Source: an uncultured Actinomycetota bacterium (lineage in GTDB: Bacteria > Actinomycetota > Actinomycetes > Sporichthyales > Sporichthyaceae). From it: a stretch of DNA of 64,000 nt. Positions 1 to 64,000 of this stretch are shown piece after piece; position 1 is the first letter of the stretch; every line of letters starts with the position of its first letter. The notes beneath the pieces are model-generated. The model did not search any database. It saw nothing but the letters and a program-made list of their open reading frames with translations, and was not told where the DNA came from. Location of the stretch: contig OY969798.1 of the NCBI GenBank assembly GCA_963703165.1, positions 4,622,585 to 4,686,584 on the forward strand, given 5' to 3'. The translations under genes were made by a program, and so were the position numbers.

Positions 1-926
1 CCCTGCTCGGCGTTGACGATGGACTTGTCGATGAGCCCGGCGAGGGTGTCGAGGATGGCTTCGCGCGGCAGTTCGGCGTCGGAGCACACCACCTCGGCCG
101 CGGCCAGGTCGAAGGAACCGGTGAAGATCGCGAGGCGCGCCCACAGCAGCTGCTCCGCGGGTGTGCACAGGTCGTGGCTCCAGTCGACCGTCGCGCGCAG
201 CGTGCGGTGGCGAGCCGGTGCAGTCCGCCCACCTTCGACGAGCAACGCGAAACGGTCCTCCAACCGGGCGGCGAGGTCCGTGACGGTCAGCACCCGCAGT
301 CGCACCGCGGCCAGTTCCAGGGCCAGCGGAATGCCCTCCAGTCGCTGACAGACCCGGGTGACCGCGTCGACGTTGGACGCGTCGACGACGAACCCGGGCA
401 CGACGGTGGCCGCACGCTCGGCGAACAGGCGCGCGGCCACCGGAATCTCCAGCGGGTCGATCCGCAGGAGGATCTCCCCGGTCACGCCGAGGCGCTGTCG
501 GCTGGTGGTGACGACGTGCAGCCGGTCGGCCGCGCGCAACAACTCATCGACGACGCCGGCCGTCCGGTCGAGCAGATGCTCGCAGTTGTCCAGGATCAGC
601 AGCACCCGCCGGCGTCGCAGGAACTCGATCAGCGTCGTCATCGGGTTGCGCGCCGAGCGCTGGGAGATGCCCAGGCTGTCCACGATCGTGTGCGGCAGCA
701 GAGCGGGGTCGGCCAGCGCGGCGAGCTCGACCAGCCACACACCGTCCGGGAAGCCGGCCGCGAGTTCGGCCGCTGCCTGCTGCGCCAGGCGGGTCTTGCC
801 GACCCCGCCGACGCCGGACAGCGTGATCAGGCGTCCCTCGCCGAGCAACAGGCAGATCTCGTCCAGCTCGTCCCGGCGCCCGACGAAGCTTGTGATCGGC
901 GCGGGTACGTTGCCGCGCCAGGCCAT
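1..926 (-). CDS. large ATP-binding transcriptional regulator, N-terminal NB-ARC/AAA ATPase portion (LuxR-LAL or SARP/TPR type); C-terminus lies outside the window
   Basis: Reverse-strand translation from the ATG at 926..924 gives MAWRGNVPAPITSFVGRRDELDEI...LSGVGGVGKTRLAQQAA (Walker A) ...LLILDNCEHLL (Walker B-like) ...RQRLGVTGE... and stays open to the window edge. It is absent from the ORF track because it runs off the window. Confidence 0.6.
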   Translation of the reverse strand, partial: MAWRGNVPAPITSFVGRRDELDEICLLLGEGRLITLSGVGGVGKTRLAQQAAAELAAGFPDGVWLVELAALADPALLPHTIVDSLGISQRSARNPMTTLIEFLRRRRVLLILDNCEHLLDRTAGVVDELLRAADRLHVVTTSRQRLGVTGEILLRIDPLEIPVAARLFAERAATVVPGFVVDASNVDAVTRVCQRLEGIPLALELAAVRLRVLTVTDLAARLEDRFALLVEGGRTAPARHRTLRATVDWSHDLCTPAEQLLWARLAIFTGSFDLAAAEVVCSDAELPREAILDTLAGLIDKSIVNAEQ

Positions 927-950
927 GCGTCGGGAAGCTAGCACCCCGGC

Positions 951-1397
951 GTGTCACCGGGCGGCCCTGGGAGTTTGCCGAATACTCGATGGATGCTCCC
1001 CATCGCCCGTTCCGGGGTGGTCCTGGCCGCCGCCGCGCTGGTCGTCGTCGCCGTCCCGACCGTCACCCGGGCCGAATCGGTGCCACGGGGCCGGTTGGTG
1101 GTCTGCAACCACGCGAGCTACATCCACAAGGTCTACGCCGACGGGCCCTCCAGCCGGCAGGAGGATCTGGCCGGGGAGTCGGACGAGTGCACGCATTGGC
1201 GGCCGGTGCTGCCCGGCAGGTACAGCGTCGGCTACGTCGCCCGGATCCCGTCGAACAAGAACCTCGTGTTCTCGGCACGGGTGAAGCACGGCGACAAGCT
1301 CTTCTACAAAAAGGTCAAGCCGTTCGGGTACGGCGTTGCCGTCCACGTCACCCCCGGTGAGGTCACTCGGATCGACTGGTTCGTCCGCCGAGCGTGA
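951..1397 (+). CDS. hypothetical small secreted protein
   Basis: The 148-aa ORF has a signal-peptide-like N-terminus (LPIARSGVVLAAAALVVVAVPTVTRAES). An internal Met at 993 is an alternative start. I see no recognisable domain. Confidence 0.35.
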   Translation: MSPGGPGSLPNTRWMLPIARSGVVLAAAALVVVAVPTVTRAESVPRGRLVVCNHASYIHKVYADGPSSRQEDLAGESDECTHWRPVLPGRYSVGYVARIPSNKNLVFSARVKHGDKLFYKKVKPFGYGVAVHVTPGEVTRIDWFVRRA

Positions 1398-1473
1398 GGC
1401 GCAGAGTCGCCGGATATCAACAAACCCTCAACATGATGGTGTCGGCACCGGCCCGTCTGCTTGGCTCCTCGTC

Positions 1474-2157
1474 ATGAGGCCCGGTCAGGTTCTGGTCGTC
1501 GACGATGACGACGGCATCCGCACGGTCGTGACCTGGCAGCTGGAGCGCGACGGCTTCGCGGTCGAGGTGGCCCCCGACGGGGAGAGCGCGCTGGCCCAAA
1601 TCGCGGCCTCGGCGCCCGACCTGGTGGTGCTCGACCTCTCCCTGCCCGGACTGAGCGGGCTCGACGTCCTGGCGCTGCTGCGCCGGGCCGGCGATCTCCC
1701 GGTCATCGTGCTGACGGCGCGCAGTGGCGAGAACGATCGCGTCCTGGGCCTGGACCTCGGGGCCGACGACTACCTGGTCAAGCCGTTCTCCACCTTGGAG
1801 CTCGCCGCGCGCATCCGTTCCGTCCTGCGCCGCAGCCAGTCCGCGGAGCCGTCCCTGTTCCTGGACTTCGGGCGGCTGATGATCGACCTGCGCTCCCACG
1901 AGGTCCGACGTGACTCCCAACGGGTGCAGCTCACCGCCAAGGAGTACGAGCTGCTCGTCTGCCTGGCCGGTTCGCCGCGCACTGCCTTCACCCGCGCCGA
2001 ACTGCTCAGTACCGTGTGGCGGTCCTCGCCCGAGTGGCAGCGCGACAGCACGGTGACCGAACACATCCACCGCCTCCGGCACAAACTGGAGGACGACCCG
2101 GCCCGCCCCCGCTGGATCTGCACGGTCCGCGGCTCGGGCTACCTCTTCGAACCGTGA
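1474..2157 (+). CDS. OmpR-family two-component response regulator
   Basis: Receiver motifs VLVVDDDDGIRTV...LVVLDLSLPGLSGLDV...VIVLTARSGENDRVLGLDLGADDYLVKPFS are followed by a winged-helix C-terminus (TAKEYELL...VRGSGY). I chose the ATG at 1474 (MRPGQVLVVDDD), which lies inside the longer ORF. Confidence 0.85.
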   Translation: MRPGQVLVVDDDDGIRTVVTWQLERDGFAVEVAPDGESALAQIAASAPDLVVLDLSLPGLSGLDVLALLRRAGDLPVIVLTARSGENDRVLGLDLGADDYLVKPFSTLELAARIRSVLRRSQSAEPSLFLDFGRLMIDLRSHEVRRDSQRVQLTAKEYELLVCLAGSPRTAFTRAELLSTVWRSSPEWQRDSTVTEHIHRLRHKLEDDPARPRWICTVRGSGYLFEP

Positions 2158-5152: not shown

Positions 5153-6493
5153 TCAATCCCAGGGTTCGGGTTCCGGGAAGGTGATCGGAACCAGCAGGCC
5201 CTGTTGGAGTTTCCAGTAGTCGAGGCGCACGGTCCACCCGCGATGATGCACGTCGAAGTGGTGCCGATCGCAGAGCAGGACGCCGTTCTCCGCTGACGTT
5301 TCGCCGTGGTCCCTTGTCCAGTGCTTCCGGTGGTGCGCGACGCAGTCATGGGCCGGGACATCGCATCCGGGGAAGGTGCAGCCGGTGTGTCGCGGGCGAC
5401 GATTGCGGCCCAGATCGCCGGGGGCCAGATGCGGGTCGTACGGCCCACCGAGAGCGGCTTGCCGTGCGGGTCGAGCACGATCGGGGTGATCTCCGCGTCG
5501 CAGAGGTGGCGCTGCAGGGCGGCGAGGGTCAGTGCCCCGCCGGTGGCGAGCGCGGCCTTGGTGATGTGAACCTGGGGGCGACGTCCGCGGCTGGTGGGGA
5601 GCTTCCCGTGCCTGAGTTCGCTGCCGAAGATGTGCACCATCGCGTCCGCGCGACGCTGGCCGGGGGTGCGCGGGTCCGTACCGCCGTTGGGTTGCGGGTT
5701 CGGTGCGTCGAGGGCCGATGGCGGTCTTGGCGGCGGCGATGTTGTCCACGCGGTCGCGCCAGGTGATCGACGCGGTGCCGTCGTGGTGGTCGCGGTAGTT
5801 CACCCCACGGACGCGTTCGGCGTCCTCGTCGTCCTTGAGTTTCCCGTCCGGGTCGGCTGCGTCCTGCAGCGCTTGCCCGACCTTGCGCAGGTCGTCGGCG
5901 TTGAGTTCGGCGGCCTTCTGCAGCAGGAGGTCGCGGGCGAACTCGCGGTGCTCGGTGGAGGTCTTGGGCGGGAGCATGTCCAGGGCCTTCACGGTGACCC
6001 GGAACTGGTCCCAGTTCACGTCACCGGAGCCCAACGCGGCGCCGACGGCGGCGTGGGGGCCTTTGCGGGTGCAGGCGACGGCCAGTTTCGCGGTGGCACC
6101 CGCGGCGGCGGGGGTCTCGCGCAGGCGGTGGCGCAGCCAGGCTTTGGTGCTCTTCGCGCCGGAGACCTCGGCGGCCCCGCGTTCGGTCATCTCGGCGACG
6201 CTGACGAGGTGGGCGTACTGGAACCGGCCGCGCAGGCGGTGGGTGCGTTCGACCAGGTCGACGGACTCGGCGTCGGTCCCGCGCCACGCCTCGTTCGCCG
6301 CGGCCTGGAGGAAGTCCTCCAGAGCTGCTTCGAGCACGCCGAGGGCAGCGTTGGCCGGGCTGGCCATGTGCTCTCCGACGTTGTTGTCCATACCCGGAAC
6401 TCTAGAGAGACCCACCGACAAGTTTTCGCCCGGAATGGGGCCCCCAGATAAGAGATTCCCTATATTGCCTGAGGGATCCTGACGCTCTGTCAT
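5153..6493 (-). pseudogene. DUF222-HNH endonuclease (13E12-repeat family), reading frame switched twice internally
   Basis: The listed frame gives a DUF222 N-terminus and an HNH C-terminus (CTFPGCDVPAHDCVAHHRKHWTRDHGETSAENGVLLCDRHHFDVHHRGW), but an Arg/Pro-rich nonsense stretch between them. The conserved middle segment (ITKAALATGGALTLAALQRHLCDAEITPIVLDPHGKPLSVGRTTRIWPPAIWAAIVARD) is encoded in a different minus frame (ORF 4366..5640). This implies two compensating 1-nt indels near 5390 and 5650-5750. Confidence 0.5.
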
Positions 6494-6598: not shown

Positions 6599-7303
6599 TT
6601 ACCGTCCGCGCGACACCAGCGCAGTCAGCCGCGAGGCGCGGCGACGCAGGTGTTCGACGGCTGTTCGTTCGTCCACTTCACCGCTGACGAACACCAGACA
6701 CAGAGCAGCCAGAGATCCGTCAGCGAACCGCAACGGCGTGGCCAACGCGCTCAGCCCGGGGATCACCTCGCCGGTGGTGCGCACGTAGCCGCTCTCGCGG
6801 GCCCAAGGGATCTCAGGGCGCTCGTCCGGTTGCGGGGGACCGGCGGCGAGGATCGCCAGGCCGGGTGCTCCGCGGTCGAGGCGATGGCGCTGGCCCGGGT
6901 TGTGGGAGACGTGGGCTCGGGACCGGCGTGGTTCGACCGACAACAGCGTCACGGCCTCGGTGCCACTGGGCACCACGAGGAACGCGGTGGCGCCTAGCTC
7001 GTCGGCCAACTCGGCCAGTTCCGGGGTCGCGGCCGCCGCGAGTTCGGTCCGCACCGCGCGGGCGAGCCCGGCGACGGCGAGGCCGAGGCGGTAGCGGCCG
7101 TCGGGTTCGCGCTCGAGGAACGCGCGGTCCTCCAGCGTGCGGACTATGCGGTACGCGATCGAGCGGTGCACGCCGGCGGTGGTGGCGATCTCCGCGACCG
7201 TGCGCGGCAGACCGTCCGCCAATAGCTCGAGGACGTCGAGGCCGCGTTCGAGCGTCTGCAGGCGGACGCCGGCGGGTGCAGGGGGCTCCGGTACGCTCGG
7301 CAT
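6599..7303 (-). CDS. IclR-family transcriptional regulator
   Basis: N-terminal HTH (VRLQTLERGLDVLELLADGLPRTVAEIATTAGVHRSIAYRIVRTLED) and a C-terminal IclR effector domain. The start is at 7303 (MPSVPEP) or 7324. It is divergent from the StyA-like gene with a 64-bp spacer. Confidence 0.8.
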   Translation of the reverse strand: MPSVPEPPAPAGVRLQTLERGLDVLELLADGLPRTVAEIATTAGVHRSIAYRIVRTLEDRAFLEREPDGRYRLGLAVAGLARAVRTELAAAATPELAELADELGATAFLVVPSGTEAVTLLSVEPRRSRAHVSHNPGQRHRLDRGAPGLAILAAGPPQPDERPEIPWARESGYVRTTGEVIPGLSALATPLRFADGSLAALCLVFVSGEVDERTAVEHLRRRASRLTALVSRGR

Positions 7304-7367
7304 CGTTCGCTCATAGAACAGCATGCTCGATATCAGAGCAAGTCCTGCTGCAGATCGGAGTGGCGCC

Positions 7368-18016: not shown

Positions 18017-18021
18017 CGGAC

Positions 18022-21035: not shown

Positions 21036-23166
21036 GTGACGCTGCTGGCTGCGCGGGTCGGAACGACCTGGCCCACGCTCATCGAGACCCTGCTCGGGTC
21101 GAGAGCTGCTGCCGTCTCGGCGCCGAGGGTCGTCACCGAGACCGTGGCCGAACTGGCCGAGGCGCAAACCGTGGGCATTGTCGAGTGGGTGCGTGACGTG
21201 CCGAGCGTCGTGCACGAGGTCGGGCCGCCGTTGACCTTGACCGTCCGCCCGCCGGCGGGCCGGGCGGATGTCGCCGGCGTTCCCGCGGTGGTCGTCCAGG
21301 TCGATGACCACCGGGACCTGGTGGTGTTGCGCCCGGCAGGCGCCCCGGCGTTCACCGCCGAGGAGGCTGCCGCCATCGAGGCGGTCAGCACACTGCTCGG
21401 GCACTCCGCGGCGTTCGGTCGCAGGGAAGCCGCGGAGACGTTGAACCGGCTTGCGCGGGAGATCGTCGGCACCCTCGACCTCGACCGGGTGCTGCTCTCG
21501 ATCGCCAACTCCGCCGCCCGGTTGCTGGCCTCCGAGGTCACCGGCGTGCTGCTCGTGCACGGTCCGCCCGATCGCCCGGAACTGCGCATGCGCTGCACCG
21601 TCGGGCACCACTCGCCGGAGACTGCCCGGCTACGCATCCCCGCCGGTCGAGGTATGGCCGGCAAGGTGCTGGAGACCGGACGGCCGGCCCGGGTGGACAA
21701 CTACGCGACGGCGGAGTCGATCACCAAGGACTACCTGCCGATCGCGATCGAGGAGGGCACGCACTCCGGCCTCGCCGTGCCCGTGCTCGACGCCGGCGGG
21801 GCGATCATCGGGGTCCTGGCCGCCTGGCGGATGCGCCCCTCGGTCTACACCGACGAGGACGAGCAGGTTCTCGTCTCCTTGGCCGGTCTCGCGTCCATCG
21901 GTCTGGTCAACGCGCGGGCCTACAGCGACCAGCAACGGGTGACCGCCGAACTGGAGGCCGCGCGCACGGAACTGGCCGACCGGCTGGCCATCTCCGACGA
22001 GGCGGTCTCGATCCACCGTCGGCTGACCGCGATCGCGGCCGAGGGGCAGGACCTGTCGCGGTTGGCCGTCGCCGTGCAGGAGATCGTCGACGGCCCCGTG
22101 GTGATTGTGCCCAGCAGCGACCGCTCGGGCGCGCGCTGGCCGCCCGGGGCCGACGTCCCGCGCGAGCAGGACAGCCGACCCCTGCGCGTCGTGGCAGCCG
22201 AGAGCGGAAGGCTCCGGGCCCGTCTGGGTCCGGGTACCCATCGAGGCCGCGGGAGTGCAGCACGGCGTCCTGCACGCGCGGCTGCCCGCCCGGCCGCGGC
22301 CGCGGGACGTCGTCACCCTCGAACAGTCCGCCGTGATCTGCGCCCTGTTGCTCGGCCACGAGGACGCCGTTGCCGCAGCCTCGGCCCGGTTGCGTTCGGA
22401 GTTCGTCTGGGACCTGCTGGAGGGCCGCGGCGACGCGGATCAGGACAACGCGCTGCGGGCGGTCGCACTCGGCCTGCGCCTGGCGTTCCCGGCTCGGCTG
22501 CTCCTGCTGCGTGGCCGAGGGTTGCGGGAACTGGGCCGGAGCGAGGGATGGACTGCCGAGCAGGCCGAACGCAACCGCATCTGGTGGGGTGGGCGGGTCG
22601 CCTCCGCCGTCGAGGAGTTGACCGGGCACCTGGTCCCCGTGGCGCACCGTGACGAGCACGTGATCGCCATCCTGCCCGCGGCGGATGCCACGGCGGCCCA
22701 CGCGGCGGCGGCGGCTGCCCGATGTCCGTTCGGCGACGTCGTGGTGCAGGGCGGGCTGAGCCGCGAGGTGCCGGGACCTGCCGGACTGCCGCAGGCGCTG
22801 CACGAGGCGCGCGTCGCACTGGCCGCGGTGCCCGCCGGTGCCGCGGTCATGCGTTTCGACGACCTGGGGGTGCTCCAGTTCCTGGTCGCGCCCTCGGGCG
22901 GGGAGGGCCTGCACGCCTTCGCGGCCGGCGTGCTGGGGGACCTGATCGCCTACGACCGCAAGCACGGCACGGAGCTGATCGCGACGCTGGACAGCTGGTT
23001 CGAGAACAGCTGCAGTGTCGCGGGCACGGCGCGGGCGATGCGGGTGCACACGAAGACGTTGGCGTATCGGCTCCGCCGGATTCAGGAGGTCTCGGGCCTG
23101 GATCTGACCGATCGTCAGCGCCGCCTGGACGTCGAACTGGCGTTGCGGGTTCTCGGCCCCACGTGA
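21036..23166 (+). CDS. GAF-domain PucR/CdaR-family transcriptional regulator (frame switch near 22215-22235)
   Basis: The N-terminal frame (21036..22652) has a GAF domain (LDLDRVLLSIANSAARLL...AIIGVLAAWRMRPSVYTDEDEQVLVSLAGLASIGLVNARAY). The C-terminal frame (22105..23166) has a PucR C-terminal HTH (MRVHTKTLAYRLRRIQEVSGLDL). The two overlap out of frame, which implies a 1-nt indel. The gene is divergent from etnA. Confidence 0.6.
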
Positions 23167-30228: not shown

Positions 30229-30887
30229 CTCAGGTCTCCATGCGGGCGTCAGCCGCGCACGGTGGACGCGTAGTCCGGACCTGCCGCACCACGTCACTCC
30301 TCCCGGGTCATCACCGATCCGCGGCATTGTGGCTCACTCGGCGCGCTGCCCGCTGCGGCGTACGGCACACGGAAGAGCTGTGTTGCGTATGTCTCCCCAG
30401 GTCAGGGAGAGGATCAGAAGACCGGGCCGACGTCCGCGGCGACGATGTCGTCCAAGGCGGGTTCGGCCACCGCGGCGGCGGCCGGGCGAGGCAGGGCCAG
30501 CGTCAGGCCCGAGGCGGCCAGTCCGGCTAGCAGGGTGCGACGGCTCGGCGCGATCACACCGCTAGCTTACACCGTAAGTCTGTGTGGTGAGGATCGTTCC
30601 GGATCGCTCAGAACGGCAGGCGGCGACCGCTCGGCGAACGACGATCCACCTCGAATTGCGGGCGCGGGCGTGCGGGTCGGCGGATCTGGATCTGGTTGGA
30701 CATCGAAGCTCCCCGTCCTCGGCATCCTGACCTCCTCCGGTGCGGCCCGACCCTGGTGCCGGGAGTCAAATACTTCCCAGTAGGCCTGGGGATCAATCCG
30801 CTTGTGAGTAGGTCGTTTCTTGCATGAAGTACACGGGGTGCTTGTTTCGGCTGAAGTCACCGACTGTGAACTCTTATGACCACGCAA

Positions 30888-32000
30888 TCAGCCGCTGTCA
30901 CGATTGGCCAGATACAGCCAGATTCCGACGCCGACGATGATCGCGCCGAGTATCGACGCAAGGGTGATCTTGACCCAGCTGTAGGGCCGCTGGCCGTGCA
31001 CCTCGCCGGTGACGCCGTTGACGAATACCTGGAACGGCTTCTGCTGGAACATCACCACCAGCAGGAACAGCGGGAGCAGCAGGTGTCGGTAGGTCTGGCC
31101 CAGCCACGCCGTCGACATCGAGTGGATGCGTTGCTGGTCGCCGCCGATGTCGTGCTTGACCGCCGAGGTGATCTCCTCGGTCATCCGCCCCTGTGCGCTG
31201 CTGTGGCACTCGGCCAGCGAGCGCTCATAGGTCCGGGACACGGCACCGGCCAGATACTCGCGCCGGAAGCCGCGCGCGTCGCCCGTGGGCCACGGTTCGA
31301 GGTCACGTAGCCGATCGGTGTCCAGCGAGGTGTCGGCCCCGATCGCGACGTCGTCGAAGCCGAGATCGACGGTGCCCGAGGCGTGCCGCCAGACGGTGTA
31401 GGTCTCGGTGCGCTGGTTCTGCCCGGACCCGACGACGCGGGTGTGAGTGTCGCCGCGCTCGCCGCTGTACTCGGTGGAGGTCTGCGTGTCGAAGGTGAAG
31501 AACGGCAGGTACACCGCGGAGAACGAGCCGGTGGTGGAGTACTTCTTGAAGGCGTTCGGCGCGAACCACCGCTTCTTGATCCACGCCTCGACCTGCGTCT
31601 TGGCCTCGGGTTGATCCATCCCGAACGGCACCACCCCGTCGACGGGCAGACGCGCCGGCGAGGCGTGGATGTCGCTGCGTTGCACCGGGCTCGCGCAGTA
31701 CGGGCAGCGGGTGGCCGTGAGGGTGCCGCTGAAGCCGATGGTGCCTGCGCAGTTCGGGCAGGTCAGTTCCTGCTCCGGACCCGCCTCGCCCGGCGCCGCG
31801 ACGGCGGCGTCCGGATCGGCGAGAGTCGCCTCGAGGTCGCGCTCGGCGGGGCGTTCGCCGTCGTCGACGACCGGCTCCTGTCGACCGCAGTTCGGGCACA
31901 CCAGGGCCTGGGCGCGGCCCGCGAACACGAACCCGCCGCCGCAGGACGGACACCCGAAGGTGACCGAGGACAGGGGTGGTGGGGTGGGACCGTCGGTCAC
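30888..32000 (-). CDS. double zinc-ribbon membrane protein (partner of the SPFH protein)
   Basis: The GTG at 32000 overlaps the SPFH gene stop (GTGA). It has two C4 ribbons (CPSC..CPNC; CPNC..CPYC), a soluble domain and two C-terminal TM helices. In the track it is merged into the 741-aa ORF. Confidence 0.5.
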   Translation of the reverse strand: MTDGPTPPPLSSVTFGCPSCGGGFVFAGRAQALVCPNCGRQEPVVDDGERPAERDLEATLADPDAAVAAPGEAGPEQELTCPNCAGTIGFSGTLTATRCPYCASPVQRSDIHASPARLPVDGVVPFGMDQPEAKTQVEAWIKKRWFAPNAFKKYSTTGSFSAVYLPFFTFDTQTSTEYSGERGDTHTRVVGSGQNQRTETYTVWRHASGTVDLGFDDVAIGADTSLDTDRLRDLEPWPTGDARGFRREYLAGAVSRTYERSLAECHSSAQGRMTEEITSAVKHDIGGDQQRIHSMSTAWLGQTYRHLLLPLFLLVVMFQQKPFQVFVNGVTGEVHGQRPYSWVKITLASILGAIIVGVGIWLYLANRDSG

Positions 32001-33113
32001 TGCGAGGGCACCGGCGGGGGCGGGATCGGCGGGGGAGTCGTGAACAACCCGGCGAGCTGGGCGACCGACGACGCGGCCGCCCATCCGGCCATGCCCGTCG
32101 TCCACACGAGAGTGCTCGGCGTCAGCTGACCCGACGCAACGGCGCCGCGCAGTTGATCGAGGTTGAACGGGCCGGTCGGTTGGCCGCCCGACTCCACGTG
32201 GAACAGGACACCGATCGGCGGCGGTGTGGCAGCCGACGCCAGGCTGCTCGCCATCTGCTGGCCCGAGCGCCAGGCCGACACCCGCCCCGACCATCGAGCC
32301 GGCACCGCCACCCTGATTTTCCGCGGCGGCCAGCGTCGCGTCCGCGGCGCGGACCTGGGCCAACCGTCCGACGTCGCCGACGTTCTGGACGTAGCCCCGG
32401 GTCTCGATGCCCTTGGCGACGCCGGCGGTCATGGCCGCGGTGATCTCGTCTGGCAGCGACACGTTCATCGCGATCGAGTCGATGGCCAGCCCGAACTCGT
32501 CGTCGACGCGCTCCGCGACCATCGCGCGCAGCTTGTCGGCCAGCTCGGCGTTCTTGTGCTGCAGATCGATCGCACTCACGCCGGCACCGCCCATGAGGTC
32601 GGCGAACGCGGTCGCGATCAGGCGACGCAGCAGTTCGGTGAGTTCCTCGAGCTCGACGGCACTGTCCGTGCCGATGACCTGGCGCAGGAAGATCTCCGGG
32701 TCGGCGATCCGCAGCACGCACAGGCCGTTGGCGCGGAGCGGAATCGTGCCGAACTCGGCGTCGCGGATGACGATCGGTTGTGGCGTTCCCCAGCGCAGGT
32801 CGGTGACCGGGCGGGTGTTGATGAAGTAGACCTCGGAGCGGAACGGGGATTTGAACCCGTGCTTCCACCCCTGCAGCGTCGACAGGACCGGGAGCGCCTC
32901 GGTGGCCAGCTCGTAGTTGCCTGGGCCGAACCGGTCCGCCAGCGAACCGCGGTAGACGAACACGGCCTGCTGGCCCTCGCGCACGATCAGCTGCGCGCCG
33001 TTCTTGATCTCGTTGTTGTAGCGAGGGAAGCGCCAGGCGAGCGTGCTGCGTGAGTCATCGATCCACTCGATGATGTCGACCAGTTCGCCCTTGATCTTGT
33101 CGATCAGCCCCAT
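31997..33113 (-). CDS. SPFH/band-7 domain protein with C-terminal DUF4339 (GYF-like) domain; frame switch near 32255-32275
   Basis: The N-terminal SPFH domain (MGLIDKIKGELVDIIEWIDDSRSTLAWRFPRYNNEIKNGAQLIVREGQ...) and Gly-rich linker are in the 33113 frame. The C-terminal DUF4339 (GGQPTGPFNLDQLRGAVASGQLTPSTLVWTTGMAGWAAASSV) and the stop are in the 32311..31997 frame. Confidence 0.55.
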
Positions 33114-33674: not shown

Positions 33675-33799
33675 GAGCGATCCTTCCCGTTCCGGGAACG
33701 CCACCACGCGCGAACCGTGGTCGGCGGACCAGTTCGCGTTGGGCCAGGAGCTTATGGGTCAGCGCGGCGCTCCGGTAGCCGTCACCTGCGCGGCTTCCA

Positions 33800-34394
33800 G
33801 CAGGCGGGCGCCCGCGCTCGCCGCCCACGCCTGCGCGGGTCATGCGCCAGCGCCAGTGCTCACCGGTGTGGCAGGGATGATCGCCTCCCCGGGCGCCGCC
33901 GACGTGCAGGTAGCCCAGCTTCGCCGGGATCGCGCCGCTCGCCGTGTTGGCCGGGTCGTGATGGATCTCGACGAGGTTCACCTCGGGCACGTCCAGGGCG
34001 ACCGCGGTCAGGGCGGCAGCGGCCAGGCCGGCGATGCCCTTGCCGACGTGCGCCGCGGCGATCCAGTACCCGATCTCCAGGGCGTCGGGGCCGAGTCGGG
34101 CGTGCAGACCACAGGTGCCGAGCACGGTGCCCGCGCGCGTTGCGCACGACGTAGGGGGCATCGATGACCGGTCCTTCGTCGCCTCACGCCGGCGCGGACG
34201 ATGAAGTCGACGACAGTTGCACGCGAGAAGTCGTGCGTCCACTCCATCCAGGGCCGCAGGTGCTCCAGCGAGGCGCTGATTGCCTCGAACAGCTCGTCCT
34301 CGTCGGCGGCGCACAGCCGACGCAGCGTCAGATCACCGGCGGTGACGCGCATCGGCAGGAGGAACCGTGGCGCGTCCGGCGGTGTCGAGGGCAT
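33800..34394 (-). pseudogene. GNAT (RimJ/RimL-like) N-acetyltransferase, frame-switched; 3' end uncertain
   Basis: The N-terminus (MPSTPPDAPRFLLPMRVTAGDLTLRRLCAADEDELFEAISASLEHLRPWMEW) is in one frame. The acetyl-CoA-binding core (GTCGLHARLGPDALEIGYWIAAAHVGKGIAGLAAAAL...LVEIHHDPANTASGAIPAKLGY) is in another, without an intervening stop. Confidence 0.35.
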
Positions 34395-34670
34395 GAAGCC
34401 CATGCTCCCCGCGGGATCCCGCGGGGAGCAACGCATTTCCCCTCCGTGGCGCAGCGGGAGCGATCAGGCGGGGCGGCGCTCCACGCTGTCGATGCCGCTC
34501 TCCATGATCGAGGCGAACTCGAAGCAGATCCGTCGGTCGGCGGCCAGGACCTGCTCCATGAGGTCGAAGGTGTACTCGACGGCCTCGGTCGGACGCAGCA
34601 CCGCTGCGGGCAGGAACGCGCGGAATGTCTCGGTGCTCGCGGACTCGGAGCATCCGATCGCCGGCCACGC

Positions 34671-48319: not shown

Positions 48320-49213
48320 GTGACCGCCCCCTCCACCCGCCGCTCCGGGCCCGACCTCTGTCCTGGGGTCCGGTCCGTGTGGTCGGCGGCCGACGGGGGA
48401 CTGGCGCGGGTCCGGATCCCCGGCGGGCGACTCTCCGCCGATCAGCTGCGCCTGCTTGCCGACGCTGCTGACGACCTCGGCAACGGGCTCCTGGAGCTCA
48501 CCGTCCGCGCGAACGTGCAGGTCCGCGGGTTGAGTGCCGGGCGTGAGCAGGATCTCGCTGCCAGGTTGCGGGTCGGCGGACTGCTGCCCAGCGACACCCA
48601 CGACCGCGTCCGCAACATTCTCGGCTCGCCGCTGGCCGGCGGCGGACGGTCGCGGACCTGATCTCTACCCTCGACGAGGAACTCTGCGACCGGCCCGCGC
48701 TCGAGGCGCTGCCCGGCCGATTCCTCTTCGCCCTCGATGACGGCTCAGCCGACGTCGCCGCGCTCGGGGCGGACGTCGGGGCCGATCGTCGTCGGGGGGT
48801 CTGTTCGCGCTGCTGCTCGGTGGCGCGCCGTGCGGCCGGTGGGTCGCTGCACGAGGACGTCGTCGCGACGCTGCTGGCGGCCGCCGAGGCGTTCCTCGAC
48901 GAACGCGGTGCGCAGTGCTCGCCGGCCTGGCGTCTCGCCGGAATTGACTGACGGACCGTCACGGGTGCTCGCAGGCGTCGCCCAGCGTGTGTCGCTGGCT
49001 GACGCAGGAACGGCGGTTCCCGACCTGTCGGAGCCGAACGCGCCGAGCGGTCCCGAGGTCGTCGAGGTGCCGGACGGCAGGCTGACCAGTGCGCGGGCCC
49101 GGGAGATCGCGGCCATGGGCGACGACCTTCGGGTGACGCCGTGGCGCAGCATCGTCGTGCCGGCGCCTGTTGACCGCAGGGAACACGCATCGCAAGGTGG
49201 GGGAGTGAAGTGA
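48320..49213 (+). pseudogene. cobG: precorrin-3B synthase CobG, multiply frame-switched and/or truncated
   Basis: N-terminal segment GGLARVRIPGGRLSADQLRLLADAADDLGNGLLELTVRANVQVRGL (48320..48661). The middle segment TVADLISTLDEELCDRPALEALPGRFLFALDDGSADVAALGADVG is readable only in another frame. The C-terminal segment VPDGRLTSARAREIAAMGDDLRVTPWRSIVVPA is back in the first frame. Total length is only about 298 codons. Its stop overlaps the cobH start (GTGA). Confidence 0.45.
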
Positions 49214-49849
49214 GTACCGAGTTGGACTACGTGCGCGACGGGACGGAGATCTACCGCCGCTCGTTCGCGACCATCCGGGCCGAGGCGAACCTCGACCGGC
49301 TGCCGCCGGACGTCGCGCAGGTCGCCGTGCGCATGATTCATGCGTGCGGCATGGTCGACCTCGTCGATGATCTGAGGTGGAGTCAGAACGTGGTGGGTGC
49401 CGCGCGGGCGGCCCTCCGCAACGGTGCTCCGATCCTGTGTGACGCGACCATGGTGGCGTCCGGTATCACCCGCAAGCGGTTGCCCGCCGACAACGAGATC
49501 CTCTGTCTGCTCAGCGACCCGCAGGTTCCCGAGCTGGCCGCGGCGATGGGCAACACGCGTTCGGCTGCCGCCGTCGATCTGTGGGGCGACCGCCTGGGCG
49601 GTGCGGTGGTGGCCTTCGGCAATGCGCCCACTGCCCTGTTCCGACTGCTGGAGCTGCTCGCCGACGGCGCCCCGCGTCCGGCCGCGGTGCTCGGGCTGCC
49701 CGTCGGCTTCATCGGGGCCGCGGAGTCCAAGGACGCGTTGGCGGCAAGTCGACCAGGAGTACCTGCTGGTTCGTGGTCGCCGCGGGGGATCGGCCATGGC
49801 CGTCGCCGCCATCAATGCCATCGCCCACGAGCAGGAGCTGCCGGTATGA
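49210..49849 (+). CDS. cobH: precorrin-8X methylmutase CobH (1-nt frame switch near 49745)
   Basis: The first about 178 aa ([55 protein letters not shown]...) are in the 49210 frame. The conserved C-terminus [28 protein letters not shown] is in the 49397..49849 frame, and its TGA overlaps the cobIJ ATG. Confidence 0.65.
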
Positions 49850-56711: not shown

Positions 56712-59700
56712 GTGTTCGAGCGCATTGCCATCGTCAACCGCGGCGAGGCGGCCGTCCGTCTGATCCGCGCCGTGCGGGAGCTGAACGAGGAACGCGGGCT
56801 GAACATCCGCACCGTTGCGATGCACACCGAGGGTGAGCGTTCGGCAATGTTCGTGCGCCAGGCCGACGAGGCCGTCCTGCTGCAGCCCAGCAAGACGGCC
56901 TCGGTCCCTTATCTGGACTACGCCGAACTGGAGCGGGCGTTGGTCGCCTGCGGTGCCGACGCGGTCTGGGTCGGCTGGGGCTTCGTGTCCGAGCACCCCG
57001 CCTTCGTCGAGGTCTGCGACCGGCTGGGCATCAACTTCATCGGTCCCAAGGCCGACGCCATGCGTCTGCTCGGGGACAAGATCGAGGCCAAGCTCGTCGC
57101 CGAGCGCGTCGGGGTCCCGGTCGCCGCGTGGAGCGGCGCGGGCAGCGTCGAGTCATACGCCGACGCGCAACGGCACGCCTCGGCCATCGGCTACCCCCTG
57201 ATCATCAAGGCCAAGGCCGGCGGCGGCGGGCGCGGCATCCGCAAGGTGATGGAGCCCTCCGAACTGCAGGCCGCCTTCGAGGGCGTCAAGACCGACGCCG
57301 CCCGCTACTTCGGCGACGACGGCGTGTTCCTCGAGGCCCTGGTGACCGGCGGGCGCCACGTCGAGGTGCAGATCATCGCCGACAAGCACGGCAACGTCTG
57401 GGCACCCGGCGTGCGTGACTGCTCCATCCAACGACGCAACCAGAAGATCATCGAGGAGTCCGCCTCCCCGGTGCTCACCCCCGAGCAGTCACTCGAGTTG
57501 CGCCGGGTCTCGATCGAACTCATCAAGGAGGTCGGCTACCACGGTGCGGGCACCGTCGAGTACCTCTACGACCCGGTCCGTAAGACCTTCGCGTTCCTCG
57601 AGGTCAACACCCGGCTGCAGGTCGAACACCCGATCACCGAGGCGGCCACCGGCATCGACCTGGTGAAGCTGCAGATCCTTCTCGCCGCGGACGAGGCGCT
57701 GGCGGGGGAGTGCCCGCCGGAACTGCGCCACGCCATCGAGATCCGGCTCAACGCGGAGGACCCCGACAACGGCTTCTCGCCGGCGCCCGGCAAGGTCGTC
57801 TTCCTGGACTTCCCGCAGGGTCCCGGTATCCGCGTCGACTCCGGCATCGCGCAGGGCGACGTGATTCCGCAGGAGTTCGACTCGATGGTCGCCAAGATCA
57901 TCGCCATCGGGGTCGACCGGAACGAGGCGCTGGCCCGACTGCGCCGCGCGCTGCGCGACACCACAGTGGTCATCGAGGGCGGCACCACCAACAAGTCCTT
58001 CGTGCTCGACCTGCTCAGCCGCGCCGAGGTGCTCTCCGGCTCGGCGGACACCGCGTGGTTGGACCGCACGGGCCTGGACAGCAAGACCCTGCCCGCCCAC
58101 GCCGATGTCGCGCTCTACGCCGTGGCGATCGACGTCTACGCCCACGAGGAAGCGGTGGAACGCGAGGCGTTCCTCGCCTCGGCACGTGGCGGTCGCCCGC
58201 AGGCCAATCACGCCATCGGTCGCGACGTCGAGGTTCGGTACCGCGGTCAGAACTACAAACTGACGGTCAATCAGCTCGCGCCGAACCGGTACCGGATCAC
58301 TGTGGCGGGCACGAGCGTGGAGGCCCGGGTGGACCGGCAGGGCCGGTTCCTGTTCCGGCTCTCCGTCGCCGGCAAGGTCCACCGGATCGTGCTCGCACGT
58401 GGGGCGGCCGATCACCTCGTCGAGGTCGACGGCATCAGCCACCGCGTCGCCCGCGACGAGGGCGGCGTCATCCGTGCCTCGGCACCCGCGGTCATCGTCT
58501 CGCTGCCGGTCAAGGTCGGGGACACCGTCGAGGCCGGGGCCACCGTCGCCGTGCTCGAGGCGATGAAGATGGAGACCCCGATCCTCGCGCCGGTCTCCGG
58601 GCGGGTGCGCGACGTGTTCGCCGTCGCCAACTCGCAGGTCCCCGCGGGCACCCCGCTGCATGCGCATCGACCCGGACTCCACCGACACCGGCCCGTCGGA
58701 CGCCCCCGTGGTGGCCTTCGAGACGGACGGCGCCACCGAGGTCGACCCGCGTACCCATGCCACCGAACTGCTGGGTTCGCTGCGCGCCCTGGTCACCGGC
58801 TACGACATCACCGCCAAGGACGGCCGGGCGCTGGTCTCCGACTACTCCGCGGTGCGCAAGTCGCTACCTGCCGACGACGCGGAACTGCTCGCCGCCGAGC
58901 TGAGTCTGCTCACCGTGTTCGCCGACGTCGCCGAGATGTCGCGTAACAAGCCGGTGGCCGAGGAGGAGCACTCCGACACGCGTGTGCACAGCCCGCGCGA
59001 GCATCTGCACTCCTACCTGCAGTCCCTCGACCTGGAGCGCGAAGGCCTGCCGGACTCCTTCCGCACGCGCCTGACCCGGGTGTTGGCCCACTACGGGGTG
59101 TCCGACCTGGAGCCCACGGGGCGCCTCAAGGACGCTGTCTTCCGCGTGTTCCTGGCTCTGGAGCGCACCGAGTCGCAGGTACCGGTCGTCAACGCGATGC
59201 TCGAGCGCTGGATGGACGTCGCAGATGTCACCGCGGCGCACGACGCCCTCGCCGAGGTTCTCGAGCGGCTCGTGGTGGCCACTCAGATTCGCTACCCGGT
59301 GATCGCCGACGTGGCCCGGGCCGTGCGCTACCGCTACTTCGACAAGCCGCTGCACATGGCGGCCCGCCAGTCCGAGATCTCCCGCGTCCGGGAGCAGCTC
59401 GGGTACCTCGTGCAGAACCCGGCCGCGCCCGACCGGGCCGACCGCGTCGAAGCGATGGTCGTCTCCCCGGAGCCGGTCATCGGGCTGATGAGCGAGTGGA
59501 TCGGCACCGGTACGGCCGACCTCGGTCCGCTGCTGGAGGTCCTGACCCGCCGGTACTACCGCTCCCGCGAGCTGGAGAACGTGCGGTTGTTCGAGCACGG
59601 TCTGCGCCAGATGGTCACCGCCGACTTCGAGCTCAACGCGAATCGGCTCTATCTGATCAACACCGTCGGCGACTTCAGCGAACTTGCGGCGTTGGCCGCA

Positions 59701-62220
59701 TCGGTCGCCGAGGTGGCGGAGGGCACCGCGGCCTTCGAGCCGCGCACGCTGGTCGTGGACATCTACCTGTCCTGGGCCGACGCCCCCGCCGACCAGGGCC
59801 AGGTCGCCGCGGCGTTGCGGGACGCTCTCGCGGAGCTACCGCTGCCGGACACGCTGCGTCGCGTCACCATCGGTGTCGCGGGCGAACTTGCCGCACGGGC
59901 GCACTATCTGACGTTCCGTCCGATCGAGGGCAGCCTCCAGGAGGACCGCCTCATCCGCGGCCTGCACCCGCTGGTGGCACAGCGCCTGGACCTGGCTCGG
60001 TTGAAGAATTTCGAACTGACCCGCCTGCCTGCCGACGAGGGTGTCTACCTGTTCAGGGCCGTCGGCCGGGAGAACCCGGAGGACGAACGACTCATCGCCC
60101 TCGGCGAGATCCGCGACGTCCACCCGTTGCGCGACGCGGCCGGCCGAGTGCTGGCCGTGCCCACGGTGGAGCGCGTCCTCGGTGGTTGCGTGGAGGCGAT
60201 CCGGGCGGAGCATTCGCAGCTGCCGGCAAAGCGACGTGCGGAGTCCAACCGCATCGTGCTCTCGGTCGCCCCGACCGCGAAGGTGCCGCTGGCGGAGATG
60301 CACCACGTGGTGCGCAACCTGGTTCCCATGACCGCCGGTGCGGGCCTCGAGGAGGTCATGGTCGTCGGTCGGCTGCAGGAGGCGGACAACGTCGAGGCCC
60401 ACGAGGTCGCGGTGCTGATCTCCTACCGCCACGGTGCAGGCGTGCAGATCTCGGTCACCGAACGGCCGAAGGAGCCGCTCCCGCCGCTGGACGAGTACGC
60501 GATGAAGGTGCGCTCCTCGGCCGCCCGCGGCACCATCTATCCCTACGAACTCGTCAAGATGCTGGTCGGCGAGAACGGCAACTTCGTCGAGCACGATCTC
60601 GACGACGACGGGACGCTCGTCCCGGTGCGTCGTGCCCCCGGCAAGAACAAGGCGGGCATCGTCGCGGGCCTGGTCACGACCCCGACCGAGCGCTACCCGG
60701 AGGGCATGACCCGGGTGATCCTGCTCGGCGACCCGACGAAGTCTCTGGGCTCGGTGGCCGAGGCCGAGTGCCACCGCGTCTGCGCCGCGTTGGACCTGGC
60801 CGAGTCCAAGGGCTACCCCGTCGAGTGGTTCGCCCTGTCCTCCGGTGCCCGCATCTCCATGGAATCCGGCACGGAGAACATGGACTGGGTCTCCCGTGCA
60901 TTGCGCCGGATCATCGAGTTCACCCAGGCCGGCGGCGAGGTCAACGTCGTCGTCGCGGGCATCAACGTCGGTGCCCAGCCGTACTGGAACGCCGAAGCCA
61001 CGATGCTCATGCACACCAAGGGCATCCTGGTGATGACGCCGGACTCGGCGATGGTGCTGACCGGCAAGCACTCACTGGACTACGCGGGCGGTGTTTCCGC
61101 CGAGGACAACTTCGGCATCGGTGGCTACGACCGCGTCATGGGCCCGAACGGTCAGGCGCAGTACTGGGCGCCGAACATGACCGCCGCCATCCACATCCTC
61201 TTCACCCACTACGAGCACGCCTACCGGGCGCCGGGGGAGCGCTTCCCCCGTCAGGCCTCGACGACCGACCCGCGCGAGCGGGATGTGCGCGACTACCCGC
61301 ATGTGCACCCAGGCAGCGACTTCACCCGGGTCGGGGACATTTTCTCGGAGGAGAAGAACGGCGAACGCAAGAAGCCCTTCGACATCCGCACCGTGATGCG
61401 TGCGGTCTCCGACGCCGATCACGCGGTGATGGAGCGGTGGGCCGGCATGGCCGACGCGGACACCTCGGTGGTGTTCGACGCGCACCTCGGCGGTATCCCG
61501 GTGCAGCTGATCGGCATCGAGTCCAAGCCGATCCCGCGTCGGGGCTACCTACCCAAGGACGGACCGGACATCTGGACCGGCGGCACGTTGTTCCCGATGT
61601 CGTCGAAGAAGACCGCGCGCGCCATCAACGCCGCCAGCGGTGTGCGTCCGCTGGTGGTGCTGGCGAACCTCTCCGGCTTCGACGGCTCACCGGAGTCGCT
61701 GCGCAACACCCAGCTCGAACTCGGCGCCGAGATCGGCCGGGCCATCGTGAACTTCGACGGCCCGATCGTCTTCACCGTCATCTCCCGCTACCACGGTGGT
61801 GCCTTCGTGGTGTTCTCCGGCGCGTTGAACGAGAACATGGAGGTCATCGCCGTCGAAGGCTCCTACGCCTCGGTGCTCGGTGGTGCGCCGGCGGCGGCCA
61901 TCGTGTTCGTCGGTGAGGTGCGCAAGCGCACCAACTCGGACCCCCGGATCAAGGAGCTCGAGGCGGCGCTGGCCGCTGCCGAGGGTTCGGCGGCGGCGGC
62001 CTTGCGGGTGGAGCTCGCCGACCTGCGCAACACCGTGCGGATCGAGAAGCTCGGGGAGGTCGCGGACGAGTTCGAGAGCATCCATGACATCCGTCGGGCG
62101 CAGAAGGTCGGCTCGGTACACACGATCATCGCGGCGTCGGACCTGCGTCCGTACCTGATCAGCGCAGTCGAGCGGGGCATGGCCCGCACGCTCGGAACCG
62201 CTCCTGACCAAGGCATCTGA
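56712..62220 (+). CDS. eukaryote-like single-chain acyl-CoA carboxylase (biotin carboxylase - BCCP - central domain - carboxyltransferase), frame switch near 58655
   Basis: The GTG at 56712 is preceded by an AAGAGG ribosome-binding site. BC domain (FERIAIVNRGEAAVRLIRAV...). BCCP domain (ATVAVLEAMKMETPILAPVSGRV). After a 1-nt frame change at about 58655, a long central domain. Then an ACC-type CT domain (GIVAGLVTTPTERYPEGMTRVILLGDPT...MLMHTKGILVMTPDSAMVLTGK). Combined length is about 1835 aa. Confidence 0.65.
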
Positions 62221-62288
62221 CCCTCCGACAGGAATGGTGAATGGCCGGGCGGCCACCACCGCCCGGCCATTCACTGTCGAGCTGTCGG

Positions 62289-63146
62289 TCAGACCGCCGG
62301 CGCCGACGACGGGGAGACGTCGCCGTGCTTCGCGCCGTTCTTGTGCGGCTGCTCGACCTTCGCGTGGCCCTTGCCGATCTTGGCATCGGTGTCGTCGGCG
62401 TCGGTGTCGTCGCCTGCTGCCTTCTTGACCTGGCCGGGGGCGGTGGCCTTGCCCTTGCCGGCGGCAGGCTGGCCGTCCTCCTTCAGCTGGCCGGGAGCGG
62501 TCGCCTTGCCCTTGCCGGCGGCAGGCCGGCCGTCCTCCTTCAGCTGGCCGGGAGCGGTCGCCTTGCCGTTCTCGCCGTCCTCCTCCGCCGCGGTGACCGG
62601 GCTCTCGACCGGCGCGACAGGAGTGGTGCCGAGAATGCCGAGGCAGAAGGCGGACACCTGCTCCGGTCCGCCGGCGGCCGTGATGAGGCGCGCGAACGCG
62701 GTGCTGTCGGCAGCCTTGCCGGGGTTCTTCAGCGCGTTGCCCTCGGTGGCCGCGGTGCACAGTCCGCTCCAGTCCCGGACCTTGGTCTCCTTGGCGGCCT
62801 TCTCCGCCTTGGCCTTCTTCGCGGCCTTCGCTTCCGAGCCGACGATCGGGGTGTCCGACGGGACGGGAAGGGCGCCGGTGCCGGCTGCCAGTGCGACGCC
62901 ACCCATTCCGGTGACGGCGATGGTCAGCGCGGCGGCCTTGACGGTGAGTACGCGGGCGACACGGTTCATGAAGGGAACGCTCCTCGGGTCGTGGACTTCT
63001 CGCCGAGCCGCCCGGAACGCTGCCAGCGCGGCAGCCTCACCCCGCATGTCCGCGGGGGACGCCGGCGCGGCCGCGGCCTGCAGCAGCTCGGCGAGGCGCT
63101 CCGACGGGGCGTCGGAGCGGAACGGGGGAATCGGCTCGGTGTTCAT
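62289..63146 (-). CDS. putative anti-sigma factor (membrane-spanning, with tandem 19-aa repeats)
   Basis: Its ATG overlaps the ECF sigma stop (ATGA). Central TM helix (VKAAALTIAVTGMGGVALAA). Repeat GKGKATAPGQLKEDG(R/Q)PAA occurs three times. Confidence 0.5.
   Translation of the reverse strand: MNTEPIPPFRSDAPSERLAELLQAAAAPASPADMRGEAAALAAFRAARREVHDPRSVPFMNRVARVLTVKAAALTIAVTGMGGVALAAGTGALPVPSDTPIVGSEAKAAKKAKAEKAAKETKVRDWSGLCTAATEGNALKNPGKAADSTAFARLITAAGGPEQVSAFCLGILGTTPVAPVESPVTAAEEDGENGKATAPGQLKEDGRPAAGKGKATAPGQLKEDGQPAAGKGKATAPGQVKKAAGDDTDADDTDAKIGKGHAKVEQPHKNGAKHGDVSPSSAPAV
62425..62576. repeat. 57-bp tandem repeat (about 2.5 copies) inside the anti-sigma factor gene
   Basis: The unit GGCCGGGAGCGGTCGCCTTGCCCTTGCCGGCGGCAGGC(T/C)GGCCGTCCTCCTTCAGCT is repeated head-to-tail. 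Confidence 0.5.
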
Positions 63147-63781
63147 CTCACTTCCTTCAGCGCATCGGCCTGGATTTCTGTCACACCTGGCTCCTCGGCG
63201 AGCACCTGAGCCAGCCGCGCCAGGCCCCGTGAGGCGCAGGTACGCACCGCTCCGGCCTTCTTGCCGAGCACGTCAGCCGCGCTCTGAGCGTCCAGTCCCA
63301 CGACGACGCGCAGCAGCACGGCCTCCGCCTGGTCCTGGGGCAGCGTCGCGATCAGTGCCAGCGCACGATCGGTGCTGATCCGTTCGGCCACCGCTTCCAG
63401 TACGTCATCGGACGCCATCGGTTCCGGTACCGCGTCGAGTTCGAGGTCGGACAGTTGTGGGCGACTACGGGCACGGCGTAGGTGGTCCAGCGCCCGGTTG
63501 CGCGCGATGGTCGCACTCCAGGCGCGAAAGGCCCGCCCGTCCCCGGAGAACTTCGGCAGGTCCCGCACGATCTGCAGCCACGCCTCGGCCGCGACGTCCT
63601 CCGCCTCGGAGCCGACGAGCGCGCCGAGGTAGCGCACCAGGCCGGCGGCAACCGTCCGGTAGACGACGATGAAGGCGACCTCGTCTCCGCCGGCCGCGGC
63701 GAGGACGGCGGCCGTCAGAGCGGCGCCGCGATCCTCGGTCGAGGTCTCGGATTGCTCGGGCGAGCGACGTTGGCGCAGCAC
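63143..63781 (-). CDS. ECF (group 4) sigma-70 factor
   Basis: Region 2 (AEAWLQIVRDLPKF) and region 4 HTH (QDQAEAVLLRVVVGLDAQSAADVLGKKAGAVRTCASRGLARL). Length is 212 aa. Confidence 0.8.
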   Translation of the reverse strand: MLRQRRSPEQSETSTEDRGAALTAAVLAAAGGDEVAFIVVYRTVAAGLVRYLGALVGSEAEDVAAEAWLQIVRDLPKFSGDGRAFRAWSATIARNRALDHLRRARSRPQLSDLELDAVPEPMASDDVLEAVAERISTDRALALIATLPQDQAEAVLLRVVVGLDAQSAADVLGKKAGAVRTCASRGLARLAQVLAEEPGVTEIQADALKEVR

Positions 63782-64000
63782 GCCGTGGCACCTCCTCGGA
63801 CGGACAGGGCGTATCGGTCGGACGCCGTCCGGGGGTGGCGCGTTGCATCGCAGCCGGGAAACAGGTCGTCCGGAGGATGCGTGGATGGTCCGTTCGGCTG
63901 ACGGTCAGGCAATTGCCGGCGAGATTCTGACCGTCACTCAGGCACGCGGGTTGGTCCCCGTACGGGGGCATCTTCACCCCCTTCTTACTCGGTTCTTCCG

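Follow-up and report, generated by a model that had tools for sequence, protein, structure and literature searches.

Do conserved genes that change reading frame partway through mark a genome in decay, or a sequence that has been misread? The question is raised by a stretch of 64 kb (the window; approximately 70% G+C) from an uncultured Sporichthyaceae bacterium, whose 5.2-Mb genome forms a single contig and was most likely obtained by long-read metagenome assembly, a platform that we infer. The genes concerned include the regulator of an alkene monooxygenase operon, the cobalamin genes cobG and cobH, and a long acyl-CoA carboxylase; in total, 13 frame-breaking insertions or deletions (indels) were found in seven genes. 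Very probably, all 13 are residual consensus errors of the long-read metagenome assembly, and the organism most likely has all seven genes intact. For the regulator and the first break of cobG, independent data show an intact allele; we infer that the other eleven sites are errors of the same kind. A first-pass annotation made from the sequence alone had proposed indel errors instead of gene decay, and this proposal is supported by the intact alleles, the outcome of repair, the lack of nonsense mutations and of extra divergence, an excess of insertions, and a sister contig with similar damage.

An intact regulator in an independent assembly

The GAF-GGDEF_2-PucR(HTH_30) regulator gene (21036..23166, plus strand) is divergent from the alkene monooxygenase operon and is recognized by Pfam over two open reading frames (ORFs), with GAF in one and GGDEF_2 and HTH_30 in the next (junction near 22205-22225). 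Full-length homologues comprise 709-744 amino acids (aa); PmoR of Mycobacterium sp. M156 is 53% identical. The frame is lost by an extra C at 22212 in GGAAGG[C]TCCGGG, outside any homopolymer. The repaired regulator, used as a query, retrieved protein P0121 (709 aa) from the Logan assembly of run ERR12037361 with 100% identity over 100% of its length. P0121 equals the translation of window nucleotides (nt) 21036-22211 joined to 22213-23163, with no other amino acid difference. On the 4,478-nt Logan contig carrying it, the coordinates of the flanking genes (345 and 184 aa) match those of the window, and the regulator between them is longer by exactly 1 nt in the window. Treating any inactivity of the alkene-operon regulator as provisional, as had been advised beforehand, was therefore well founded, since an intact 709-aa ORF exists in an independent assembly.

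Four Logan contigs of ERR12037361 map onto approximately 13.6 kb of the window; the Logan contigs are patchy (1.6-5 kb) and carry the regulator, a Uma2 gene with the start of cobG, IclR with StyA, and KaiC with SpoIIE-KaiB and ANTAR, respectively. Seven proteins totaling 2,568 aa are identical between window and Logan, namely six found by exact look-up (345, 184, 190, 418, 241 and 481 aa) and the 709-aa regulator. Because these seven proteins are exactly identical, the Logan contigs represent the same population. Compared at the level of proteins and gene coordinates, the two assemblies differ over the approximately 13.6 kb by 0 amino acids and by three single-base lengths, at 22212, at the first cobG site and in an intergenic spacer (30229..30887), which has a length of 659 nt in the window but of 658 nt according to the gene coordinates on the KaiC-bearing Logan contig. 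The spacer suggests that indel differences occur outside genes, too. Length differences without amino acid differences point to consensus error, not divergence, and it is Logan that holds the version with intact ORFs, in agreement with all homologues.

These data bear directly on genuine, very recent gene decay, in which 13 real frameshifts would have left seven non-functional pseudogenes, including the regulator, cobG, cobH and the carboxylase. Such decay would fit the source annotation, which appears not to translate the broken genes, since searches with the carboxylase and the regulator found no 100%-identical partial products even though the collection searched includes this genome. However, it is hard to reconcile with an intact regulator and a cobG that continues past its first break in the same population, among 2,568 otherwise identical amino acids, and indels and amino acid substitutions in a ratio of 3:0 over 13.6 kb do not form an evolutionary pattern.

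The operon next to the regulator belongs to an alkene monooxygenase/epoxide-coenzyme M cluster at 12.6-20.9 kb. With the regulator included, this Sporichthyaceae genome has at 12596-23166 a complete cluster for alkene/epoxide degradation, consisting of PhyH, an EtnE-like Meth_synt_2 protein, SDR, a 2-KPCC-like disulfide oxidoreductase, reductase, hydroxylase alpha, MmoB and hydroxylase beta. The 2-KPCC-like gene has 77% nucleotide identity with genes on plasmids of Nocardioides JS614 and Mycolicibacterium NBB4. A megablast search of 50 kb against a plasmid collection gave distant matches only (72-78%), and no monooxygenase genes were present in the pNOCA01 region examined.

Thirteen breaks and their repair

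Approximately 53 genes were called by a model of third-position GC (GC3) together with Pfam, which was run on 59 candidate ORF segments. Breaks were screened at every same-strand GC3 frame change and at every change of relative phase against four related loci; the regions 1.4-4, 8.6-12.5 and 41.8-43.8 kb, which lack a close relative, were screened by Pfam coverage and GC3 only. Uncultured Sporichthyaceae are the nearest relatives: CobN shares 85% identity with that of contig L001 of a metagenome-assembled genome (MAG), and the carboxylase is 87% identical to P0001 of another MAG (L081) and only approximately 71% to that of Sporichthya polymorpha.

The 13 sites are distributed over the HNH/DUF222 gene (two), the GAF-PucR regulator (one), an SPFH gene (one), a GNAT gene (three, one of them tentative), cobG (four), cobH (one) and the carboxylase (one), which amounts to approximately one frame-breaking error per 5 kb of the window. 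All nine frame switches listed in the first-pass annotation proved to be real, each supported by homology, and four sites were added. It claimed at least eight affected genes, but its list covers seven. An edit of 1-2 nt per junction yielded a full-length ORF colinear with homologues in all seven genes. The segments on both sides of the junctions align end to end with the same homologue, and after repair the Pfam matches are single and full-length. The frame switches are thus far more than chance, and no internal stop or nonsense mutation was seen in the repaired genes. Beyond the 13 sites, the GC3 path and the four related loci revealed no further breaks in the window, the remaining signals being gene boundaries, two-gene layouts or breaks of the relative itself, and the Pfam scans revealed no truncated domain match among the approximately 53 genes.

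The most heavily damaged gene is cobG (precorrin-3B synthase; 48320..49213, plus strand), which consists of five frame segments. More than 40 homologous ORFs match it in frame 2 up to approximately 48640, in frame 1 from approximately 48650, and in frame 2 again near 48940. In contrast to the window, cobG is unbroken in two relatives, L081 (called as an intact gene of 329 aa) and L001 (matching in a single frame). Frameshift-aware alignment to the L081 gene gave four breaks (-1 at 48647 and 48795, +1 at 48849 and 48941), and the same four were obtained by tracking the DNA phase modulo 3 against L001 and L081. At site 1 (48647..48650), one base is missing from the window (GGACGG^TCG). This break is absent in the Logan assembly, whose ORF, beginning at the equivalent of 48320, stays open for at least 159 codons, up to where the contig ends; that of the window has a stop after 113. 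At site 2 (48794..48799), alignment and phase analysis show that one G is missing from a run that has six G (G6) in the window; adding it gives ...ADRRRGGLFALLLGGAPCGRWV, matching the FALLLGARPVGRWV of the homologue. Site 3 (48848..48849) is an extra T or G outside homopolymers in GTCGC[T]GCACGAG, located by alignment with L001, which reads GGGTCGC-GCGCGAGG (W V A R E D V V) where the repaired window has W V A H E D V V. Site 4 (48940..48941) is an extra G in GCC[G]GAATTG, placed by L045 and the alignments, with a repaired reading of ...AWRLAELTDGPSRVLA.

The Logan contig carrying Uma2 and the cobG start ends at approximately 48797, i.e., inside the G6 run of site 2, which would fit reads disagreeing on the length of this run. 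The Uma2-family endonuclease gene itself (47700-48272) lies between cobN and cobG; in the relative L081, only a 42-aa remnant ORF is found in this place.

In the adjacent cobH (precorrin-8X methylmutase, identified by the CbiC profile; 49210..49849, plus strand), the break falsely fuses the reading frame to cobIJ, resulting in a 718-aa ORF (49210-51366). An extra T at 49749 in GGCAAG[T]CGACC, not part of a homopolymer, shows as a single-base gap against L001, and approximately 25 homologues pass from frame 1 to frame 2 at 49749-49757. Repair extends the CbiC match from positions 1-171 to 1-195 of 196 (245 bits). In the relative, cobH is a separate gene of 213 aa, and the repaired stop codon overlaps the ATG of cobIJ (ATGA) at 49846.

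The single-chain acyl-CoA carboxylase (BC-BCCP-ACC_central-CT; 56712..62220, plus strand) is split into two ORFs according to Pfam and tblastn. Nearly all of its best 120 homologues are single proteins of approximately 1,830 aa. Up to 58658, every homologue aligns in frame 3; from 58660 on, the alignment is in frame 1. From the homologues, the break is read as an extra, non-homopolymer A at 58660 in CCGCTGC[A]TGCGCATC. All homologues have ...AGxPLLR(I/L/V)D..., and removal of the A gives AGTPLLRIDPDS and restores the conserved PLLRIDPD within an ORF of 1,835 aa free of internal stops. Identity to the closest homologue is 90% upstream and 86% downstream of the break, a gradient also found in other homologue pairs. 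The inserted A creates an in-frame ATG exactly at the junction (58660), giving the downstream ORF of 1,186 aa the appearance of a gene of its own with a regular start codon.

The SPFH gene (Band_7_1 and GYF_2; 31997..33113, minus strand), delimited by a Tsukamurella homologue and by Pfam after repair, reads in the window as a 741-aa ORF (30888-33113), falsely fused to the downstream gene for a zinc-ribbon membrane protein. The Tsukamurella homologue has 382 aa and is followed by a separate gene of 365 aa. Frameshift-aware alignment places the C-terminal GYF_2 domain in another frame. Reading of the frames points to one extra base in CTCGGGCCAGC (32260..32264, minus strand), where the exact base is uncertain, as this is a linker region; frame A ends in ...GVGLALG and frame B continues with QQMASSLASAATPPPIGVLFHVE..., paralleling ...GMAMGQQFAQ... 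in Tsukamurella. The repaired protein contains Band_7_1 and a newly visible GYF_2 (61.6 bits), and its stop overlaps the GTG of the next gene as GTGA. Overlaps of stop and start by 4 nt, here found for both repaired cobH and repaired SPFH (ATGA, GTGA), are usual for coupled genes.

The GNAT gene (Acetyltransf_3; 33759..34403, minus strand) shows three or four frame segments by Pfam and frame reading. Before repair, Acetyltransf_3 matched at positions 61-137 only, its N-terminal part lying in another frame; afterward, a single stretch covers 2-137 of 138 (70.7 bits). Three-frame reading gave two +1 sites 53 nt apart. Site 1 (34184..34186, minus strand) is one extra base outside homopolymers in GGCGTG[A]GGCGAC, with the junction ...VVDFIVRAGV followed by GDEGPVIDAPYVVRNA..., and site 2 (34130..34138, minus strand) is one extra base in GCGCGCGGG, with ...YVVRNAR followed by GTVLGTCGLHARLGPDALEIGYW.... 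A third site (33837..33839, minus strand) is tentative and would consist of one extra C in ATGACCCGCG (ACCCGCG). Without this C, the protein ends as ...WRMTAQAWAAS...GAPR*, its stop codon (33759-33761) lying immediately ahead of the next gene. The Viterbi path of the GC3 model switches frame at 33834/33835, coinciding with this site.

Three frame segments were also found in the DUF222/HNH endonuclease gene (5153..6367, minus strand), recognized by its split Pfam match and by reading of the frames. The DUF222 profile is matched at positions 5-164 and 194-306 in two ORFs of different frames, and the HNH motif follows in a third segment, back in the first frame; after two edits, DUF222 is a single match (5-306/306, 102.6 bits). 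Site 1 (5712..5716, minus strand) is one extra base in GGCCCTCG on the coding strand; with one C fewer, it reads ...KTAIGLDAPNPQPNGGTDPRTPGQRRADA..., which is consistent with the DUF222 profile. Site 2 (5385..5390, minus strand) is probably a 2-nt gain of AC in GACACACC, or alternatively a 1-nt loss. Here, an ORF of L060 matches in frames -2 and then -1, and removal of AC gives ARD-TG-CTFPGC with the RDxxC spacing of the sole homologue examined (L060, RDGHC). A frameshift-aware alignment of this gene to the distant L060 ORF had a negative score, and three-frame reading together with Pfam was used instead.

Once repaired, cobG and cobH resemble their relatives as closely as these resemble one another. 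In cobH, two relatives share 85% identity with each other, and the repaired gene is 87% identical to either of them; in cobG, the values are 72.5% between the two relatives and 69-71% for the repaired gene. Constraint is thus not relaxed on repaired cobG and cobH. The GC3 signal is kept in all segments of the broken genes.

Downstream segments that remain conserved could also reflect programmed recoding, by which ribosomal frameshifting or transcriptional slippage would restore the frame in vivo. The arrangement of two conserved segments in adjacent frames does resemble programmed +1/-1 frameshifting as in prfB, dnaX and IS3 transposases, yet nothing beyond this conservation speaks for it. Programmed frameshift sites are conserved across homologues and accompanied by slippery or stimulatory signals, whereas every homologue examined here is single-frame and the window sites that were read share no slippery or other common motif. 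Moreover, the regulator occurs unshifted in the same population, and thirteen events in seven unrelated genes would be without precedent. Given homologues that are single-frame and an allele that is intact, recoding can effectively be considered refuted, and we see practically no chance for it.

The profile of the probable errors, and gene decay as a rival

Insertions account for 10 or 11 of the 13 events. Bacterial mutation is deletion-biased, so the excess of insertions runs in the opposite direction, a point against gene decay. Most sites had been said to lie in GC homopolymer-like runs; this was not confirmed, and at the three motifs given as examples the extra base (C, T, A) matches neither neighbor. 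In five of the 13 events, the inserted base differs from both neighbors (22212 C, 34184 A, 48848 T, 49749 T, 58660 A). Among the 12 single-base events, seven touch a doublet or triplet of one base, compared with a chance expectation of approximately 49% at the composition of the window. The only long run affected is the G6 at 48794-48799, and one event (HNH, 5385-5390) resembles a 2-nt gain of AC instead of a single-base change. Local G+C around the sites is raised only mildly. Altered run lengths with a preference for long runs, as expected from homopolymer-length errors, were consequently not found. In the wording “systematic indel errors” of the first-pass annotation, “systematic” is overstated, as the sites are patchy and not tied to one motif.

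Residual indel errors are familiar from Nanopore and PacBio CLR (continuous long read) data; they are measured by the IDEEL test and corrected by proovframe or Homopolish. The window resembles such cases in that single-base errors split conserved ORFs, are repaired by a homologue-guided edit and are absent from an independent assembly. Further, the source contig is very long (5.2 Mb), and a sister contig of the same style is similarly affected. This closest large relative, contig_82395 of ENA ERZ25039588 (L083/L084; 210 kb, Flye-style name), shows approximately ten single-base indels of its own in approximately 20 kb at positions where the window is intact. Genes for PhyH, SDR, reductase, hydroxylase alpha, KaiC and NB-ARC are split or fused there, e.g., PhyH into 153 + 74 aa, KaiC cut to 218 aa, and hydroxylase and reductase fused into 723 aa. 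With approximately one error per 2-3 kb, the density is comparable or higher. Frameshift-causing indels are known in Nanopore-only MAG assemblies, especially at low coverage (PMC9262707; PMC12313526).

Several observations weigh against an explanation by consensus errors. Textbook Nanopore errors are deletions in homopolymers of at least 4 nt, whereas the events here are rich in insertions, five are non-homopolymer, only one lies in a long run, and they are patchy. The sites are clustered, with ten pairs within 400 nt versus 0.97 expected (P approximately 1e-5), and they fall in seven genes instead of the approximately 11 expected (P = 0.003). Real pseudogenes with multiple hits would cluster, too, and HNH/DUF222 elements and accessory GNATs belong to gene classes which often decay. 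In addition, the independent data cover two of the 13 coding sites, with the intact allele at both, the other 11 lying outside the Logan contigs reached; synonymous differences and exact bases are outside the view of the comparison between window and Logan.

With respect to gene decay, the clustering of lesions in few genes resembles that of multi-hit pseudogenes, and frameshifted remnants of conserved genes are recognizable by homology in decaying actinobacterial genomes such as that of Mycobacterium leprae as well. However, in cobG both the Logan contig and the absent rate acceleration contradict decay as the cause of the clustering. In real decay, as in M. leprae, frameshifts are mixed with nonsense mutations, deletions and raised substitution rates and are common to all isolates. 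In contrast, the window has only indels of 1-2 nt, no rate acceleration, no nonsense mutations or larger deletions among those seen, and an intact allele in the same population; neither a lesion fixed in the population (tested at two sites) nor relaxed selection with nonsense mutations and deletions was found. The rest of the cob operon and of the alkene operon is intact. On balance, we regard decay of all seven genes as highly improbable.

The clustering could instead come from strain heterogeneity, i.e., a sub-population in which indels have recently inactivated accessory genes and the oxygen-dependent cobG step, giving rise to the patches in HNH, GNAT and cobG/cobH; the long-read consensus would then have taken this haplotype and the k-mer assembly the intact one. 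We consider this very improbable. Our guess is that the patchiness stems from local low coverage or from collapsed strain variation.

A mixture of consensus errors at most sites with real pseudogenes or strain-variable alleles in one or two multi-hit accessory genes (DUF222/HNH, GNAT) has a small chance of being correct. The HNH and GNAT sites lie outside the independent data, selfish HNH elements often degrade, and the HNH site at 5385-5390 resembles slippage of an AC dinucleotide, which may be a real mutation. Furthermore, exact look-ups of repaired cobH, carboxylase, SPFH, HNH, GNAT and cobG returned no match, although such a match requires the right start codon and junction residue and Logan is patchy, so that its absence is uninformative. 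A homology search with a 973-aa chimera of the repaired junctions gave one irrelevant match, probably since low-complexity words swamped the candidates, and a literature search for ERR12037361 gave none. On the other hand, HNH and GNAT keep a strong third-position GC in every segment and give clean full-length domain matches after minimal edits, without a stop codon or other damage. We therefore favor consensus error for these genes as well. Small indel errors, for the most part insertions of 1 nt, would thus have remained in the consensus; the thirteen in coding sequence would break the seven genes and, through lost stop codons, produce the two false fusion ORFs of cobH-cobIJ and of SPFH with its downstream gene.

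Neighboring genes and consequences for the organism

Several other places in the window that had the appearance of frameshifts were rejected. IclR (6599-7324) is intact with a short IclR_C and identical in Logan; the metallo-beta-lactamase and FAD monooxygenase ORFs at 9600 are two separate genes and not one split gene; and the ORF upstream of the penicillin-binding protein (36489-36941) has the same two-frame layout in the relative L001. Breaks apparent in the N-terminus of hydroxylase alpha (19447) and in PhyH, SDR, reductase and KaiC belong to the relative, and matches at 54.7-55.7 kb are antisense “shadow” matches. The ORFs at 40064-41974 and 42118-43710 are likewise not one split gene but paralogues; these adjacent minus-strand genes have no Pfam match and are approximately 40% identical via their L001 homologue.

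Further genes of the window include a KaiC/SpoIIE-KaiB pair, the SPFH and GNAT genes and a class A penicillin-binding protein, and the cobalamin cluster has the order cobN/cobG-H-IJ/cobK-M-L. KaiC (481 aa, two KaiC domains) lies directly 3′ of a SpoIIE phosphatase-KaiB fusion (335 aa) at 27774-30228, adjoined by a GAF-ANTAR regulator. Both genes of the pair are intact and of equal length in Logan, and the KaiC sequence is identical.

The feature is an artefact of a known kind, of practical but not of biological value. No interpretation should be placed on the seven “pseudogenes” or on the two apparent fusions, cobH-cobIJ (718 aa) and SPFH-zinc-ribbon (741 aa). Automatic annotation would report the latter two as novel fusion proteins. 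Because the errors are not confined to homopolymers, a correction restricted to these would miss approximately 40% of them. For this 5.2-Mb genome and for sisters like contig_82395, inflation is to be expected in any genome-wide pseudogene count, coding-density figure or statement of gene loss. For the biology of this Sporichthyaceae bacterium, this means that the regulator of its alkene monooxygenase and its aerobic cobalamin pathway should be treated as intact.

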